A stretch of 64,000 nucleotides of DNA from Eledone cirrhosa (GCA_964016885.1 OZ024740.1:226734001-226798000); one strand, 5' to 3'. Numbered from the stretch's first letter, positions 3,743 through 57,208 are shown. Numbers and translations: made by a program. Notes: generated from the letters alone by a model not told the origin.

Positions 3743-4382
3743 TAATAATAATAATAACAATAATAATAATAAAATAATAATAATAATAAAATAATAATAA
3801 TAATAACAATAATAATAATGATAACAATAATAATAGTGATAAATAATAATAATCATCATAGAAGATGGAGACAAAAAAAACATTACAGGAACCTTTTTCT
3901 AGCATAATGCAGCTTTTAACTGCTGCTTCCGTAGCTATGCACCATCTTCCGGCTTAAAAGACTGAGGTAAAATGATGGAAAGGTAGGGAGTGAACGAGAG
4001 AGGTAGAGGGGTTAGTGTGCTAGTGGAGAGAGGGGTGTGAACAGGTGGTTTGAAAGTAAGGGGCAGGAGGTGGTTGCGGGCAAATGAGCATTGCTAGTAG
4101 TAGTAGTAGTAGTAGTATGTTGATGGTATTGATGGTGGTGATAGTGGTTGTAGGAAAGGGATTTATATGAAAAACAAAATATAAGCAAACAGAAGAAAAG
4201 ATGGAAAATGTGCAGAGATGTAGGAAGATAAAGGAAGATGCAAAAGATGGTGGTTTGGTGTAGGGGTTTCTAGCAGGGGTGGGTGGGAGGGAAGGTGGGA
4301 TGTTTTTGTGAAGAAGGATTTTTAAGTGGATTTCAGATGGGTGTAGTAAAGGAGGAGGTTTAAAGAGCAGCAGTAGTAGAAG

Positions 4383-25015: not shown

Positions 25016-25061
<46 letters not shown>

Positions 25062-25188
25062 AATGTAGGAGGTGAGTTTTATTGTAGTACAATAAAGCAA
25101 TGCAGATATCGGATAAGAAGCACTCTACAGTTTGTGGGACTGGAGTATGCATAATATAAGATCAAAAGATGGTTAAAGGAGTTCAATA

Positions 25189-25259
25189 TATTTTATTATG
25201 CGCATTTCAAAAACAAACATCATCAAACAATAATATTTGTGTTTTCATCAGATAAAACA
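25189..25259 (-). ncRNA. Type I minimal hammerhead ribozyme (mirror copy)
   Basis: Exact reverse complement of 25369-25439. Confidence 0.75.
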
Positions 25260-25368
25260 GGAGAACATGATATGAAGGCTAAAAAAACACTTGTTGATAG
25301 TGCAGTTTATGTTGATTTAAAACTGCACTATCAACAAGTGTTTTTTTAGCCTTCATATCATGTTCTCC

Positions 25369-25439
25369 TGTTTTATCTGATGAAAACACAAATATTATTG
25401 TTTGATGATGTTTGTTTTTGAAATGCGCATAATAAAATA
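25369..25439 (+). ncRNA. Type I minimal hammerhead ribozyme
   Basis: tgttttat-CTGATGA(25377)-stem II of about 15 bp with G.U pairs-GAAA(25420)-tgcgca-TA(25430-31)-ataaaata; helix III region ATGCGCAT is palindromic. Confidence 0.75.
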
Positions 25440-25531
25440 TATTGAACTCCTTTAACCATCTTTTGATCTTATATTATATATATACATATATATATATATT
25501 TAGTTATGTAATAAACAACATAAGGCAATTA

Positions 25532-25592
25532 TTTCATTTACCAGTGGTTTCTTAAAAGCAAACAAATTTTGCTTTCAATCATCAGAATAAAA
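25532..25592 (-). ncRNA. Type I minimal hammerhead ribozyme
   Basis: ttttatt-CTGATGA-TTGAAAGCAAA-atttg-TTTGCTTTTAA-GAAA-ccactgg-TA-aatgaaa; 11-bp stem II, 7-bp stem I, GUA site. Confidence 0.8.
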
Positions 25593-25729
25593 AAATCCTG
25601 GTGTATTTATTGATAGAGCACTCTTTTTTCCTGGACCTTTCCGACGGAATTACTACATTCATACATAATATATATATTTATATATATATTAAAATACAAA
25701 TATTAATAAAATAGATGTTCTTTTGATCA

Positions 25730-25792
25730 ATTACATTTTATTATACATATTTCGGATGTACAACAGTACGTCCTCATCAGACAAAATATAAT
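25730..25792 (-). ncRNA. Type I minimal hammerhead ribozyme (mirror copy)
   Basis: Reverse complement of 25894-25956 with GAAA-tatgta-TA. Confidence 0.8.
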
Positions 25793-25893
25793 GATACATG
25801 ACATACCCTGAGATGTTAAATGGTTAAGATTTAATCAAGGTACTACCGTGATTAAATCTTAAACATTTAACATCTCAGGGTATGTTATGTATC

Positions 25894-25956
25894 ATTATAT
25901 TTTGTCTGATGAGGACGTACTGTTGTACATCCGAAATATGTGTAATAAAATGTAAT
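25894..25956 (+). ncRNA. Type I minimal hammerhead ribozyme
   Basis: attatattttgt-CTGATGA(25906)-GGACGTAC-tgtt-GTACATCC-GAAA(25933)-tatgtg-TA(25943-44)-ataaaatgtaat; canonical G10.1-C11.1 pair; 12-bp stem I with 2 G.U. Confidence 0.85.
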
Positions 25957-26589
25957 TGATCAAAAGAACATCTATTTTATTAATATTTGTATTTTAATAT
26001 TAATAACTCTGGAAAATTATTTTCTTGTAGAGTGCTTCCAATCTACTGTAAAACTCATTCTTTGATGTACGCATTGAATCTTGTTTAACTCTTTAACATA
26101 TATATATATGCGATTGTGTATGTAAATATGTGGTTGTGTATGTATATATATATGACTGTATATATGTGAGTGTCTGTGTGCATGTGTGATTGTGTATGTA
26201 TATATGTGATTGTGTGTATATATATGTGTGATTGTGTGTGTAAATATGTGATTGTGTGTGTATATGTGTGATTGTGTATGTATATGTGATTGTATGTATA
26301 CATGTGTGATTGTGTGTGTGCATATATGTGATTGTGTGTGAGTATGTGTGATCGTGTGTGTGTATATATGTGATTGTGTGTGTATATATGTGATTGTGTG
26401 TGTATATATGTGATTGCATGTGTATATATATATATATATGCGATTGTGTGTGTAAATATGTGATTGTGTATGTATATATATATGTGTGATTGTGTGTGTA
26501 TATATATGAGTGTGTGTGTCTATGTGTGATTCTGTATGCGTGTGTATTTGTGATTTTGTGTCCATATGTGAATGTGTATGTGTATGTGA

Positions 26590-29500
26590 TTGTGTGTGTG
26601 TAAATATATCTATGTGTGCAAATGTGAATGTGTATGAATGTATGTATGTGTGTGTAAATATATCTATGTGTGCAAATGTGAATGTGTATGAATGTATGTA
26701 TGTGTGTAAATATATCTATGTGTGCAAATGTGAATGTGTATGATTGTATGTGTGTGTGTAAATATATCTATGTGTGCAAATGTGAATGTGTGTGAATGTA
26801 TATATGTGTAAATATATCTATGTGTGCAAATGTGAATGTGTATGATTGTATGTATGTGTGTAAATATATCTATGTGTGCAAATGTGAATGTGTATGAATC
26901 TATATATGTGTATGTAAATATATCTATGTGTGCAAATGTGAATGTGTGTGAATGTATGTATGTGTGTGTAAATATATCTATGTGTGCAAATGTGAATGTG
27001 TATGAATGTATGTATGTGTATGTAAATATATCTATGTGTGCAAATGTGAATGTGTATGAATGTATTTGTGTGTAAATATATCTGTGTGCAATGTGAATGT
27101 GTATGAATGTATGTATGTGTGTAAATATATCTATGTGTGCAAATGTGAATGTGTATGAATGTATGTGTGTGTAAATATATCTATGTGTGCAAATGTGGAT
27201 GTGTATGAATATATGTATGTGTGTGTATGTAAATATATCTATGTGTGCAAATGTGAATGTGTATGAATGTATGTATGTGTGTAAATATATCTATGTGTGC
27301 AAATGTGAATGTGTATGAATGTATGTGTGTGTAAATATATCTATGTGTGCAAATGTTGATGTGTATGAATATATGTATGTGTGTAAATATATCTGTGTGT
27401 GTAAATGTGAATGTGTATGAATGTATGTGTGTGTAAATATATCTATGTGCGCAAATGTGAATGTGTATGATTGTATGTATGTGTGTAAATATATATGTGT
27501 GTGCAAATGTGAATGTATGTATGTGTGTGTAAATATATCTATGTGTGCAAATATAAATGTGTATGATTGTATGTATGTGTGTAAATATATCTATGTGTGC
27601 ATATTTTACATGTGTATGAATATATGTATGTGTGTGTAAATATATCTATGTGTGCAAATGTGAATGTGTATGAATGTATGCGTGTGTAAATATATCTGTG
27701 TGTGCAAATGTAAATGTGTATGAATGTATGTGTGTGTAAATATATCTATGTGCGCAAATGTGAATGTGTATGATTGTATGTATGTGTGTAAATATATCTG
27801 TGTGTGCAAATGTGAATGTGTATGAATATATGTATGTGTATGTAAATATATCTGTGTGCAAATGTGAATGTGTGTGAATGTATGTATGTGTGTGTAAATA
27901 TATCTATGTGTGCAAATGTGAATATTTATGAATGTATATGTGTAAATATATCTATGTTTGCAAATGTTGATGTGTATGAATATATATGTGTAAATATATC
28001 TATGTGTGCAAATGTTGATGTGTATGAATGTATGTATGTATGTGTGTGTAAATATATCTATGTGTGCAATGTGAATGTGTATGAATGTATGTGTGTGTAA
28101 ATATATCTATGTGTGCAAATGTAAATGTGTATGAATGATGGTGTGTGTAAATATATCTGTGTGTGCAAATGTAAATGTGTATGAATATATGTATGTGTGT
28201 GTAAATATATCTATGTGTGCAATGTGAATGTGTATGAATGTATGTGTGTGTAAATATATCTATGTGTGGAAATGTAAATGTGTATGAATGTATGTGTGTG
28301 TAAATATATCTGTGTGTGCAAATGTGAATGTGTATGAATGTCTGTATGTGTGTAAATATATCTATGTGTGCAAATGTAAATGTGTATGAATGTATGTGTG
28401 TGTAAATATATCTATGTGCGCAAATGTGAATGTGTATGATTGTATGTATGTGTGTAAATATATCTGTGTGTGCAAATGTAAATGTGTATGAATATATGTA
28501 TGTGTATGTAAATATATCTGTGTGCAAATGTGAATGTGTGTGAATGTATGTATGTGTGTGTAAATATATCTATGTGTGCAAATGTGAATATGTATGAATG
28601 TATATGTGTAAATATATCTATGTGTGCAAATGTTGATGTGTATGAATATATGTGTGTAAATATATCTATGTGTGCAAATGTTGATGTGTATGAATGTATG
28701 TATGTATGTGTGTGTAAATATATCTATGTGTGCAATGTGAATGTGTATGAATGTATGTGTGTGTAAATATATCTATGTGCGCAAATGTAAATGTGTATGA
28801 ATGTATGTGTGTGTAAATATATATGTGTGTGCAAATGTGAATGTGTATGAATGTATGTATGTGTGTAAATATATCTATGTGTGCAAATGTAAATGTGTAT
28901 GAATATATGTATGTGTGTGTAAATATATCTATGTGTGCAATGTGAATGTGTATGAATGTATGCGTGTGTAAATATATCTATGTGTGCAAATGTAAATGTG
29001 TATGAATGTATGTGTGTGTAAATATATCTGTGTGTGCAAATGTGAATGTGTATGAATGTATGTATGTGTGTAAATATATCTATGTGTGCAAATGTAAATG
29101 TGTATGAATGTATGTGTGTGTAAATATATCTATGTGCGCAAATGTGAATGTGTATGATTGTATGTATGTGTGTAAATATATCTGTGTGTGCAAATGTAAA
29201 TGTGTATGAATATATGTATGTAAATATATCTGTGTGCAAATGTGAATGTGTGTGAATGTATGTATGTGTGTGTAAATATATCTATGTGTGCAAATGTGAA
29301 TATGTATGAATGTATGTGTGTGTAAATATATCTATGTGTGCAAATGTGAATATGTATGAATGTATATGTGTAAATATATCTATGTGTGCAAATGTTGATG
29401 TGTATGAATATATGTGTGTAAATATATCTATGTGTGCAAATGTGAATGTGTATGAATGTATGTATGTGTGTGTAAATATATCTATGTGTGCAATGTGAAT

Positions 29501-29870
29501 GTGTATGAATGTATGTATGTGTAAATATATCTATGTGTGCAAATGTGAAGTGTATGAATGTATGTATGTGTATGTAAATATATCTATGTGTGCAAATGTG
29601 AATGTGTATGAATGTATGTATGTGTAAATATATCTATGTGTGCAAATGTGAATGTGTATGAATATATGTGTGTGTGTAAATATATCTATGTGTGCAAATC
29701 TGAATGTGTATGAATATATGTATGTGTGTGTAAATATATCTGTGTGTGCAAATGTGAATGTGTGTGAATGTATGTATGTGTGTAAATATATCTGTGTGTG
29801 CAAATGTGAATGTGTGTGTATGAATGTATATGTGTGTAAATATATCTATGTGTGCAAATGTGAATGTGTA
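26590..29870. repeat. ~44-50-bp minisatellite with ~666-bp higher-order block
   Basis: Unit gtaaatatatctatgtgtgcaaatgtgaatgtgtatgaatgtatgtgt; near-identical blocks start at 27864 and 28530. Confidence 0.93.
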
Positions 29871-30459
29871 CAAATATATGTATGTGTGAATGTAAATGTT
29901 TGCATCTATGTGTGTGTGTGAGTAAATATAACTATGTGTGCAAATGTGGATGTGTACAAATGTGGATGTGTGATTGTAAATGTTTATATCCATGAGTGTG
30001 CGTAAATATATTTGTGTGCAAATGTGCAAGTGTGAATGTGTGTATGTGTATGCATGTGTGTGTGTGTGTATGTATGCACGTGCACTTCTTTCCATGGTTC
30101 TCTCATTACAAACAGACTTGCACGTGACGTGCAGTTAGCGGTAATCTAGCTATGTACAGGTAGGAGGTGAACAGATGAAGAAAGAAGCGAGGATAGAAAG
30201 ATACATAAATAAATAGTGAGGGGGAAAAAGATATATAGAGACAGACATACAGACAGAAAGAGTGGGAGGGATAGAGAGGCGAGGAAGAGGGAGTTAATGA
30301 CAGTGTAGAATGAGGGGGGGGGGGGGTAATTAGAAATTCTGAAGACTGAAGTAGAGGAGTTGGGGGTCGGGTGGAGGAACAACAAAGAAAGAAAGAAAGA
30401 AAGACTGAGTGAAAGAGTGTAATGAGAGAGAAAGAGAAGTGGATGAAAAAAAAGATTAA

Positions 30460-30715
30460 CCCTTTTGATATCAAACAGCCTGGAACCATCCCTGGTTCTA
30501 TCATACAAGACTTTGTTTTTAAATGTTTATATTTAACTAAAAACCTTCCACCCTAATTTAGGTACAAGAACCTATGTTAAGCTATGTTTCAACACCAGCT
30601 TCTTAATGAGAAAGTTAATTATTTTTAGTTAGTTCTATTACAAAATCTCTACAAAAGCTTGAATATTTTCAAAATGATTTGAAAATATTTCTTTAGAAAC
30701 ATGTTAATGAAAAGG
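30460..30715. mobile_element. piggyBac-like MITE
   Basis: TTAA-ccctttt.at ... at.aaaagg-TTAA. Confidence 0.5.
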
Positions 30716-30728
30716 TTAAAAGAGACTG

Positions 30729-30809
<81 letters not shown>

Positions 30810-31110
30810 AGAAATAAAAAAAGGATAACAAAAAATAATACCAAGAAATAAAAAAGAATTAACTAACAAGGCGTGCTGGGATTTGAACTCGAAGATGAAA
30901 GAAGAAAGGGTACAGTGGTATCCATATATATATAGATTCATATGCATTGAATTTATACTGAGATGACATACTTTAAATATATCATTTATAGACCTCAACT
31001 ACTATTGTGGTCCTTTGTGTTGGGATGCATACATTTCAGATTTAATACACACACACACACACATGCACATATATATATAAATATATGTCCATTTTCCCCG
31101 CTAGCATATA

Positions 31111-31144
<34 letters not shown>

Positions 31145-31148
<4 letters not shown>

Positions 31149-31398
31149 TGTCACGACAAAAAAACACACAGTCCACGCTGTAATGTGGCCGTGTAGGCAA
31201 CACGGTAAAAACCTCCCAGACCCACACTGTAAATGTGGTTGGTGTTAGGAAGGGCATCCAACTGTAGAAAACCTGCCAGACAGTCCTATGCGAGCAAGAC
31301 AATCACTCTTGCCTCAAGTGGGACTACCCCCGTCCAAACCCATGCAAGCGTGGAACACGGACGTTAAACGTTGATGATGATGATGATGATGATGATGA
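31145..31398 (+). mobile_element. 5'-truncated copy of the intact LINE's 3' UTR
   Basis: Identical by eye to 36788-37030; (GAT)n tail. Confidence 0.92.
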
Positions 31399-31458
31399 TA
31401 TATATATATATATATACAATATATTAATAAATGGAAACTATATTTATAAAGCCATATT

Positions 31459-31524
31459 TATTTTATTATATATATTTCAAGGGCAACTAAGGCAAATTAT
31501 GGTGCGCTTTCATCAGATAAAATA
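31459..31524 (-). ncRNA. Type I minimal hammerhead ribozyme (mirror copy)
   Basis: Reverse complement of 31681-31746 with 2 substitutions in the stem II region. Confidence 0.7.
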
Positions 31525-31680
31525 CGGATTTGTTTTAGAAATAAATATTTTTGTTTTATAAATAAATATTGACATACCCGGAAAAAAGACAACCTTAACG
31601 GTTGGAGCTTCCTGGAAGCTCCAACCGTTAAGGTTGTCTTTTTTCCGGGTATGTCAATATTTATTTATAAAACAAATCTG

Positions 31681-31746
31681 TATTTTATCTGATGAAAGCG
31701 CACCATAATTTGCTTTGGTTGCCCTTGAAATATATATAATAAAATA
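31681..31746 (+). ncRNA. Type I minimal hammerhead ribozyme
   Basis: tattttat-CTGATGA(31689)-AAGCGCACCA..TGGTTGCCCTT-GAAA(31727)-tatata-TA(31737-38)-ataaaata; perfect 8-bp stem I; palindromic ATATATAT helix III region. Confidence 0.75.
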
Positions 31747-31965
31747 AATATGGTTTTATAAATATACTTTCCATTTATTAATATTTTGTGTATTTACTCC
31801 ACTAACTTGTTGAGTGGCTTTATATCGGTTATAAAAATGTTTAAGCTTGTTGAATCCCAACAAATTTAATATATTCTCTGCATATATATATATAGAGAGA
31901 GAGATAGAGATAGATAGAGATAGATATAGATATATAGAGAGAGATAGATATATTTTTATATGTAT

Positions 31966-36681: not shown

Positions 36682-37124
36682 CAAAATACACCCCTCCCGC
36701 CGCCACCCCCACCCCATCCACACCACCCCGTTCTATGTAAAGTTATGTTGGTGCCGCGCCATCCAGGCCGAAACAAATGAGATCGTGTAGGTGTCACGAC
36801 AAAAAAACACACAGTCCACGCTGTAATGTGGCCGTGTAGGCAACACGGTAAAAACCTCCCAGACCCACACTGTAAATGTGGTTGGTGTTAGGAAGGGCAT
36901 CCAACTGTAGAAAACCTGCCAGACAGTCCTATGCGAGCAAGACAATCACTCTTGCCTCAAGTGGGACTACCCCCGTCCAAACCCATGCAAGCGTGGAACA
37001 CGGACGTTAAACGTTGATGATGATGATGATATCTTGATATATATTTATATATATGTATGTATGTATATATTTATACTTTTATATATATGCATGCATGTAT
37101 ATATATATGTTGTGGAACCAATAT

Positions 37125-37410
37125 AAAGCTATGTTGGTACCACAACATCAAGTCCGAAATAAATGAGGTCGTGTAGGTGTCACGACAAAAAACACAGTCC
37201 ACGCTGTAATATGGCCGTGTAGGTAACACGGTAAAAACCTCCCAGTCCACACTGTAAACGTCGTTGGTGTTAGGAAGAGCATCCAGCCGTAGAAAACCCG
37301 CCTGACAGTCCTGAGCAAGACAACCAATCTTGCCTCAAGTGGGACAATTCCCATCCATTTCCCATGCTAGCATGGGAAATGGACGTTAAACGATGATGAT
37401 GATGATGATA
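37125..37410 (+). mobile_element. Older diverged LINE/SINE 3' end
   Basis: Similar but not identical to 36740-37030. Confidence 0.8.
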
Positions 37411-37481
37411 AATGTATACTCTTTTACTATTTTACCTGTTCCAGCCATCCGGCTGAGGCCATATATATTTACCTATATATT

Positions 37482-37512
<31 letters not shown>

Positions 37513-46504: not shown

Positions 46505-46800
46505 ACACTGGATAAAAAGTGCCCAGTCCACACTAGAGTGGTCATGTAGTGTTACGACAAAAAGTTCCCAGCCCACACTGCAAAGTGGTTGTGTAAGTGC
46601 CATGACAAAAAGCACCCAGTCTACACTGTAAAGTGGTTGTGTAGGTGTCATGACAAAAAGTACCCTGCCCACACTGTAAAGTGGTCATGTAGGTTTCACG
46701 ATAAAAAGTACCCAGTACTCACTGTAAATGTGGTTGGTATTAGGAAGCGCATCCAGCTGTAGAAAACAAGCCAAAATCAGTTCTGTATAAGCAAGACATT
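46505..46800 (+). mobile_element. LINE/SINE tail with about 5 tandem ~50-bp units
   Basis: gtgtaggtgtcatgacaaaaagcacccagcccacactgtaaagtggt repeated. Confidence 0.75.
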
Positions 46801-56946: not shown

Positions 56947-57208
56947 TTCTAAAGAATTAAACAGTTCTAGTCCTGTAGAATCTCATCTATATTAAAACTA
57001 TATATATATATATATATATATAGTTTTAATATAGATGAGATTCTACAGGACTAGAACTGTTTCATTCTTTAGAAATCATCATGATGATTTCTAAAGAATG
57101 AAACAGTTCTAGTCATGTAGAATCTCATCTATATTAAAACTTTTATACTCTGCTATGTATTGAGTACCTTACTTACTGTGGTTACCTCCGATTCAACCCG
57201 GAATAACA
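56947..57208. mobile_element. Triple alternating fold-back (+/-/+) with tail
   Basis: 52-bp unit at 56947-56998 (+), 57023-57074 (-) and 57089-57140 (+); centres are (TA)n and atcatgat. Confidence 0.85.

Follow-up and report, generated by a model that had tools for sequence, protein, structure and literature searches.

Hammerhead palindromes in TA repeats of Eledone cirrhosa as probable twin-primed insertions of Penelope-like elements

A 64-kb window of the Eledone cirrhosa genome (GCA_964016885.1 OZ024740.1:226734001-226798000) contains three palindromes that lie in (TA)n repeats and carry a hammerhead ribozyme motif on each arm. We consider it likely that these palindromes are 5'-truncated, head-to-head insertions of three families of Penelope-like elements (PLEs), or four when an insertion missed by the initial annotation is counted, which were twin-primed and whose complementary DNAs (cDNAs) were then joined; in this explanation, the best that we have, both hammerheads are probably passengers of a duplicated pseudo-long terminal repeat (pLTR). 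The firm ground of the account is family membership, copy numbers, the parent open reading frames (ORFs) of families 1 to 3, the single tail, the fixed outer ends and the shared inner end. The palindromes are known transposon debris, neither a new regulatory switch nor a new element class: the families are new, the form of insertion is known, and its layout is already in print. We worked on the full window and collected copies genome-wide (loci are numbered with an L) by sequence-pattern search in the 3.0-Gb assembly. Element positions are counted from the C of the hammerhead core, taken as 0.

Tails, ends and junctions of the paired insertions

The initial annotation placed palindromes at 25151-25477, 25686-26000 and 31417-31788, where we also found them (elements 1 to 3, of families 1 to 3). 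It took the inserts for pure palindromes, a description that we correct, as an unpaired tail of 66-101 nt stands on one side, and only one, of each window insertion (Table 1). The palindrome arms lie at 25146-25308/25320-25482 in element 1 (99% identity), at 25681-25842/25844-26005 in element 2 (96% identity), and at 31409-31549/31656-31796 plus 31550-31612/31614-31676 in element 3, whose left arm contains a tandem duplication of 21 bp at 31529-31570. When we examined 57 family 1 pairs, four ran into the ORF, and each of the 53 with both outer ends in view combined one tailed with one tail-less arm. The outer ends themselves are fixed, with +97 to +110 joined to +187 to +195 in 53 of 53 pairs; the corresponding ends are about +93/+195, +104/+193 and +85/+151 in families 2, 3 and 4.

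Loci of the first 100 family 1 matches were fetched and gave 52 junctions, each with an adjacent inverted, 5'-truncated copy lying head to head, an arrangement that families 2-4 also have. We dropped three junctions in which an outer end could not be seen or the joint was an internal one. In the remaining 49, the arms were equal within 4 nt in 20, the tail-less arm was longer in 19, by up to 3 kb, and the tailed arm was longer in 10. The tailed arm ends at +77 to +157 in six pairs, so that the two arms hardly overlap or do not overlap at all; the family 4 arms in the window likewise share no sequence and stand head to head yet form no palindrome. Unequal and barely overlapping arms argue against a simple fold-back. 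In contigs from public runs, there are many joints of a cut tail to an arm beginning at window position 25308.

The two arms of an insertion tend to carry the same subfamily variants: 114 variants were present in both arms and 14 in one, compared with 21 in both and 199 in one when pairs were shuffled (maximum, 46 in 500 shuffles). This concordance implies that both arms came from one RNA or one donor, or were homogenised. Two RNAs of one donor may have supplied the arms. Two RNAs from different donors, paired through helix III, were rejected as the source, since concordant arms imply that mixed donors are rare.

The initial annotation proposed checking whether copies share the same fold-back centre, and the answer is mixed: centres range between ~50 bp and 6 kb, but an identical one, the CATATG palindrome, recurs at 700 loci. 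Inner ends fall at -72 to -66 in 52 of 98 family 1 arms, with a sharp upstream edge; in a histogram of 101 arms, a single arm ends between -130 and -73, and 31 extend beyond -130. Among terminal arms that reach -66, 53 of 85 stop at -72 to -66. Four family 1 pairs (L110-L113) have both arms ending near -1465 to -1618, possibly a second, looser hot spot. Genome-wide, 3,841 family 1 matches begin at the A at -70 after a non-parent base, which a hand count of the first 100 listed gave as G in 42, T in 47 and A in 11. Among the loci that we fetched, the preceding base is G in 12 of 19 arms at -70 (four ambiguous), versus 4 of 16 shorter arms. Family 2 has 555 matches beginning at -64, and a hand count of the preceding base gave G 36, T 56 and A 8. 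This -64 A lies in TCA(+1)CT with TATAAAT 31 nt upstream, and the family 1 inner end, at which half of the arms begin, is an initiator-like site; an arrangement of initiator and TATA box has been noted for a rotifer pLTR (PMC3846280). A non-parent G at a common inner end suggests run-off at the start of a capped RNA, and a fixed RNA start would explain the shared centre better than a self-propagating class.

Parent elements, conserved box and hammerhead motifs

Core patterns of families 1, 2, 3 and 4 gave 3,583, 2,688, 7,948 and 1,464 matches genome-wide, and the four reversed-pattern controls gave none. Close pairs among the first 100 matches listed per family are divergent and lie between ~50 bp and 6 kb apart. 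In family 1, the pair with the widest spacing (L114) forms a palindrome of 6.3 kb, and each of its arms contains reverse transcriptase (RT) and endonuclease sequence. By extending the tail outward, we reached an unbroken frame of 821 codons in 3.9-kb tandem units at five loci (L196-L200). The tandem arrays at L195-L200 belong to family 1 and hold unbroken, near-identical 821-codon frames, from which family 1 was probably active recently; the array at L200 has a perfect palindrome, at -499, as its centre. For families 2 and 3, we found related pieces of ORF (39-61% identity in tblastn pieces). Parent PLEs with RT and GIY-YIG, for which the initial annotation proposed a search, were thus found for families 1-3. 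In the fetched loci, no parent ORF was tied to family 4, whose arms (L255-L272) often have, as part of the element, a (TG)n tract ~105 nt upstream of the core. The initial annotation saw no obvious common primary sequence among the palindromes; we find that the families do resemble each other around the core and in the tail, as do their parent proteins at the identities just given. A GAGTGCT-like motif is common to the tails of families 1-3 (window 25119, 26030 and 31812).

The 821-codon frame encodes an RT with FDI and YRDD (378) followed by a C-terminal GIY-YIG domain with YFG...R...H (714). DKT replaces DKG (HSDKTNN at 144 in family 1, KSDKTNN in family 2), and the N-terminal motif reads RLRWT in family 1 and RLRWR in family 2, with RW present and the K of RWK absent. 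The linker CxCx5C is CNCRIKNKC (680), CxxC is CNLC (780) and CxH is CLH (808), all three motifs recurring in families 2 and 3; by inspection, the GIY-YIG core has one Cys only and no CCHH. Pfam and PDB sequence searches with the parent protein returned no significant named match, a family 3 piece gave GIY-YIG in Pfam below the cut-off (E 6.5e-4), and RVT_1 and GIY-YIG were each reported in 1 of 17 homologues. A partial tandem forms pLTRs at L034 and L195-L200. Judged by their motifs, the parents match RT plus GIY-YIG PLEs of the Hydra clade of C-terminal-endonuclease elements, as that clade is described by Craig et al. (2021; PMC8557442). Common to both are a single ORF with RT and GIY-YIG, the RW, DKT, CxCx5C, CxxC and CxH motifs, a canonical pLTR hammerhead with self-complementary helix III, and insertion into (TA)n. 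They differ in unit length, which is 3.9 kb and 4,047 bp here, owing to a long 3' untranslated region, but generally <3 kb in the clade, and in having RWT or RWR instead of RWK. The hammerhead sequences of Hydra-1_oBim also differ from ours.

Two other element types were rejected. Against a non-LTR retrozyme, close pairs in the first 100 matches of families 1-3 are divergent, and direct pairs lie 4-5 kb apart; against a fold-back or miniature inverted-repeat DNA transposon, the ends are asymmetric and the arms continue into the RT ORF. One short tandem locus, L202 (G000:C2:216011000-216013500), has short direct repeats of +58 to +262, including the box described next, on both arms, a retrozyme-like unit beginning near the ribozyme cut.

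An alignment of three families revealed a conserved 22-nt box, GCTCC-N6/7-GTTSAGCGCTT, a few bases beyond the distal end, with 938 genome matches and none for its control. It lies 195-210 nt after the core in 19 of 30 loci and has an ORF downstream in 27 of 30. At L196 it occupies positions 4264-4292, between the tail end and the ORF start; it occurs in more than 10 loop variants and is common to many families. Since the box folds weakly (GCUC/GAGC stem, z -0.7 to +0.4), we treat it as a sequence motif. The anole PLE enzyme requires RNA 3' of the sites where it starts, and by analogy we regard the box as a candidate recruitment signal. Because short copies stop ahead of it, their self-propagation is unlikely. 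Short arms (59) and long arms (44) both belong to the commonest haplotype, and another three groups are likewise mixed; haplotype groups that span short and long or ORF-linked arms imply that hairpins are remade from each parent subfamily. The initial annotation offered two readings of its ORF-less, head-to-head pLTR pieces. With the parents found, the one that saw truncated PLE insertions stands, whereas a self-propagating non-autonomous class fits poorly with haplotypes common to short and ORF-linked copies and with short copies that lack the box.

The type I, outward-reading hammerhead that the initial annotation saw on each arm is borne out by six motifs in the three palindromes, and our predicted plus-strand cuts coincide with its own (Table 1). 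A descriptor scan gave these six real matches and none in each of 30 block shuffles; a seventh motif, in family 4 on the minus strand, has a 7-nt helix III stretch. The hammerhead family was absent among the 150 Rfam matches listed of 346, those listed being microRNA models on hairpins and microsatellites. Helix III is self-complementary, as claimed, in elements 1 (ATGCGCAT) and 3 (ATATATAT) and reads ATATGTAT in the left arm and ATATGTGT in the right arm of element 2; self-duplex energies are -10.5, -2.2 and -3.2 kcal/mol for elements 1, 2 and 3. Stem II occurs as AAA/TTT, GGA/TCC, AAG/CTT, AGG/CCT and GGT/ACC, a variety that is descriptive only, as the descriptor demanded pairing. Minimum free energy (MFE) folds of single arms form stems I and II and, in three of four cases, no helix III (z -0.9 to -2.5). 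With this core, both stems and a self-complementary helix III, the motifs conform to the dimer type, which cleaves weakly in vitro (PMC4209133). The initial annotation also foresaw a double-stranded rod in which the ribozyme competes with its own antisense. Such a rod would indeed form if transcription read through the palindrome (MFE -232 to -258 kcal/mol, with 97% of bases paired), and on this folding model it should not cleave; the competition drops out for the template that we propose, which would begin at the centre and hence lack the antisense arm.

Table 1. Arms, hammerhead motifs and flanking target repeat in the window
Feature	Position	Strand	Details
(TA)n target tract, left flank	25024..25061	.	
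Family 1 tailed arm	25060..25308	-	-57 to +191; tail 25060-25150 unpaired
Hammerhead motif, family 1	25189..25259	-	core 25251; predicted cut after 25197
Family 1 tail-less arm	25308..25477	+	-69 to +100
Hammerhead motif, family 1	25369..25439	+	core 25377; predicted cut after 25431
Family 4 tail-less arm	25501..25612	-	-27 to +84; seventh hammerhead, core 25585, predicted cut after 25539
Family 4 tailed arm	25613..25662	+	tail part only, from about +103; outer end approximate
Family 2 tail-less arm	25686..25842	-	-62 to +93; hammerhead core 25780, predicted cut after 25742
Family 2 tailed arm	25842..26103	+	-64 to +195; begins at initiator-like A; hammerhead core 25906, predicted cut after 25944; tail 26001-26103 unpaired
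Family 3 tail-less arm	31412..31616	-	about -83 to +104 (reference L102); core 31516, predicted cut after 31467; internal 21-bp duplication
Family 3 tailed arm	31610..31883	+	about -83 to +193; core 31689, predicted cut after 31738; tail 31789-31883 unpaired

The family 4 insertion, at 25501-25662, lies between elements 1 and 2. Insertion into (TA)n, as the initial annotation stated, is seen in further TA tracts at 25478-25500 and about 25666-25690, which separate families 1, 4 and 2, and in those flanking element 3. In many fetched loci, further hammerhead families, at least five in total, lie next to those searched, which means that one TA tract can collect several families. A fifth hammerhead-type family occurs in the window at 56950-57208 as a head-to-head pair cut at the first core base (centre 57081/57082), with a tail to about 57208 and an extra tail-less copy at about 56950-57008 followed by a TA tract. 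Between elements 2 and 3 lies a 52-bp minisatellite of ~65 copies (26557-29888). A SINE-like repeat ending in (ATG)n recurs at 31147-31399, 36738-37490 and 46514-46736, and element 3 sits in the TA tract directly after the first of these. A tRNA model match at 1229-1286 on the minus strand (38.5 bits versus a gathering score of 29) is probably the head of a SINE.

A twin-primed origin and its rivals

We propose that the GIY-YIG endonuclease would cut both strands of (TA)n, after which one strand would prime at about +100 and the other at about +191, on one RNA or on RNAs of one donor. Priming at two different sites would leave the tail on one side. The capped RNA would start within the pLTR (-70 in family 1, -64 in family 2), and both cDNAs would run off its 5' end after 170-260 nt, often with a C added opposite the cap, in a way that resembles retroviral strong-stop DNA. 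Host end-joining would then fuse the cDNA ends, either bluntly, with templated filler or by short microhomology, which in family 1 is a CATATG or ATAT palindrome. Lacking the conserved box 3' of the tail, the products would be immobile. For long and ORF-bearing copies, we propose a template without a capped 5' end, either a ribozyme-made circle or a read-through multimer.

The distinction between the two templates comes from 70 ORF-linked arms (the first 30 of 277 matches plus 40 more, with loci already sampled skipped and four loci giving two arms each). None of the 70 begins at -74 to -66, although 40 pass through these positions; nine start at +175 to +191 and nine at +82 to +118, which are the two priming sites. 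Predictions of full-length copies starting at -70 and of copies starting at the ribozyme cut (+55) both failed, with 0 of 70 in either case. That 40 arms pass -70 and none stop implies that -70 is no sequence-built stop and that the long copies were made from a different template. This was probably a circular or multimeric RNA; a hammerhead-made circle has been proposed for PLE tandems (Discussion of PMC4209133). A circle has no capped end, and the enzyme would stall at its own two primers after one round. A similar pattern could also arise from read-through multimers or from insertion into AT-rich sites within the element. The origin of the long copies is the least secure step of the scheme.

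Several observations weigh against the twin-primed reading. About eight loci have a single arm only, and long arms have correlated inner ends (-1562/-1596, -2900/-3079), which fold-back explains simply. A later deletion could also leave arms unequal or without overlap, and similarity between arms could result from gene conversion. An old variant group (-7A, 17G) was seen in short arms only (11-12 arms). As for the capped start, ~14 of the 42 G's in family 1 and about a dozen of the 36 in family 2 could come from the partner arm, and G precedes only one of five arms at -64 in a small family 2 locus sample. Family 1 lacks a TATA box at -31, and family 3 inner ends are spread over ~15 nt. The genome-wide control at -50 gave 11 matches, none of them on the two largest contigs, and may undercount. 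The second template was added after the -70 prediction had failed, to account for that failure, and the absence of ORF-linked arms at +55 is allowed by a circle without proving one. Start site, cap and circle are all read from junctions alone.

The rival with most in its favour, although we consider it unlikely, is fold-back or self-priming, in which one cDNA, or an antisense RNA as modelled in PMC3846280, folds at a short palindrome and copies itself. This model, already in print, accommodates the symmetric junctions (20 of 49), the 700 loci centred on CATATG, arms from one source, and long pairs such as L114 that join at inverted microhomology with the loop on the tailed arm. It predicts, however, a tailed arm that reaches at least as far as its partner, and the longer tail-less arm of 19 of 49 junctions is something that fold-back cannot give unless a deletion followed, which could occur. 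The six barely overlapping pairs and the non-overlapping family 4 arms of the window also speak against it, and two free ends are suggested by the joints at -70, which can be blunt or contain an extra G or filler. Slightly less probable still is a self-propagating hairpin class, whose members would be transcribed, moved by the parent enzyme and inherit their centre. In its favour are the 700 identical centres, the more than 10-fold excess of short copies over ORF-linked ones (277 matches), the internal promoter of Penelope (PMC2377424) and the old variant group seen only in short arms. At least four haplotype groups, however, include short arms as well as long or ORF-linked ones, the joints at -70 are of many kinds, short copies end ahead of the conserved box, and the family 2 TATA box lies outside them.

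It seems very improbable that RNA structure stopping the RT, and not an RNA 5' end, created the inner hot spot. A small hairpin does lie just downstream of -70, and the inner ends of families 3 and 4 are more spread; yet the ORF-linked arms pass through the very sequence at which 53 of 85 terminal arms stop, and the extra G appears in two families. An assembly or library artefact from chimeric fold-back reads can practically be dismissed: no contig of four public runs spans the whole stretch, but against it stand the one-sided tails, whose ends are fixed in each of 53 pairs, differences between arms, filler that is not templated, TA repeats flanking either side and similar joints in public runs.

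Related systems and implications

The supplement of PMC8557442 includes Hydra-1_Obim from an octopus, and Penelope-13_HM of Hydra magnipapillata, in which both strands have a hammerhead and the 5'-truncated copy is inverted. Insertions of endonuclease-positive PLEs with an inverted pLTR (PMC8557442, PMC3846280) resemble ours in the head-to-head 5'-truncated copy, a tail at one end, palindromes or microhomology at the inverted junction, and initiator-like TCACT and TATA sequences in the pLTR. They differ in tail length (66-101 nt here versus 30-40); the ORF-less form is the commonest here, and our junctions favour two primed cDNAs over the published antisense self-priming (PMC3846280).

The anole element PAc, studied in vitro by Frangieh et al. 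(2024; PMC11167929), cuts both target strands and extends each of them. It starts at two internal sites that lie downstream of the hammerhead and mark the limits of the tail, requires RNA 3' of these sites, and uses RNA that is uncleaved. By analogy, such two-strand extension with tail-bounding starts would supply the chemistry for a twin-primed origin. PAc differs in belonging to the Poseidon clade and in an ORF that begins inside the hammerhead, and the portion of the paper accessible to us describes neither an inverted structure from two-strand priming nor cap run-off. L1 twin priming (PMC11702581) is alike in that second priming from the other target end produces an inversion, and the extra G at full-length 5' junctions is ascribed to the cap; in L1 the inverted parts are non-duplicating and the second site varies, whereas here both sites are fixed and the cDNAs usually copy the same stretch. 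Animal non-LTR retrozymes (PMC7229834; bioRxiv 10.64898/2026.07.22.740005) are, like the short copies here, ORF-less and pLTR-derived with type I hammerheads, but form direct tandem repeats with circular RNAs, in contrast to the single inverted pairs and ORF-bearing parents of E. cirrhosa. A literature search that left most subscription papers outside its scope found no statement of PLE cap run-off with two-strand priming, of the missing stop in ORF-linked copies, or of the box.

How PLEs build tandem and inverted insertions and what the hammerhead does are stated as open questions in PMC8557442 and PMC11167929. The young families studied here, with unbroken ORFs and thousands of near-identical short products, have junctions that give exact positions for two priming sites and a predicted capped start, along with a 22-nt box common to many families. 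We tentatively suggest, at somewhat below even confidence, that the palindromes are the Penelope equivalent of strong-stop DNA: with the start sites and box near the front of the capped RNA, an uncleaved transcript would yield only the short double run-off product, and copying the ORF would need permutation by the hammerhead and circularisation. If this is true, the ratio of hairpins to long copies would record the failure rate of the ribozyme, and it would explain why PLEs keep a hammerhead.

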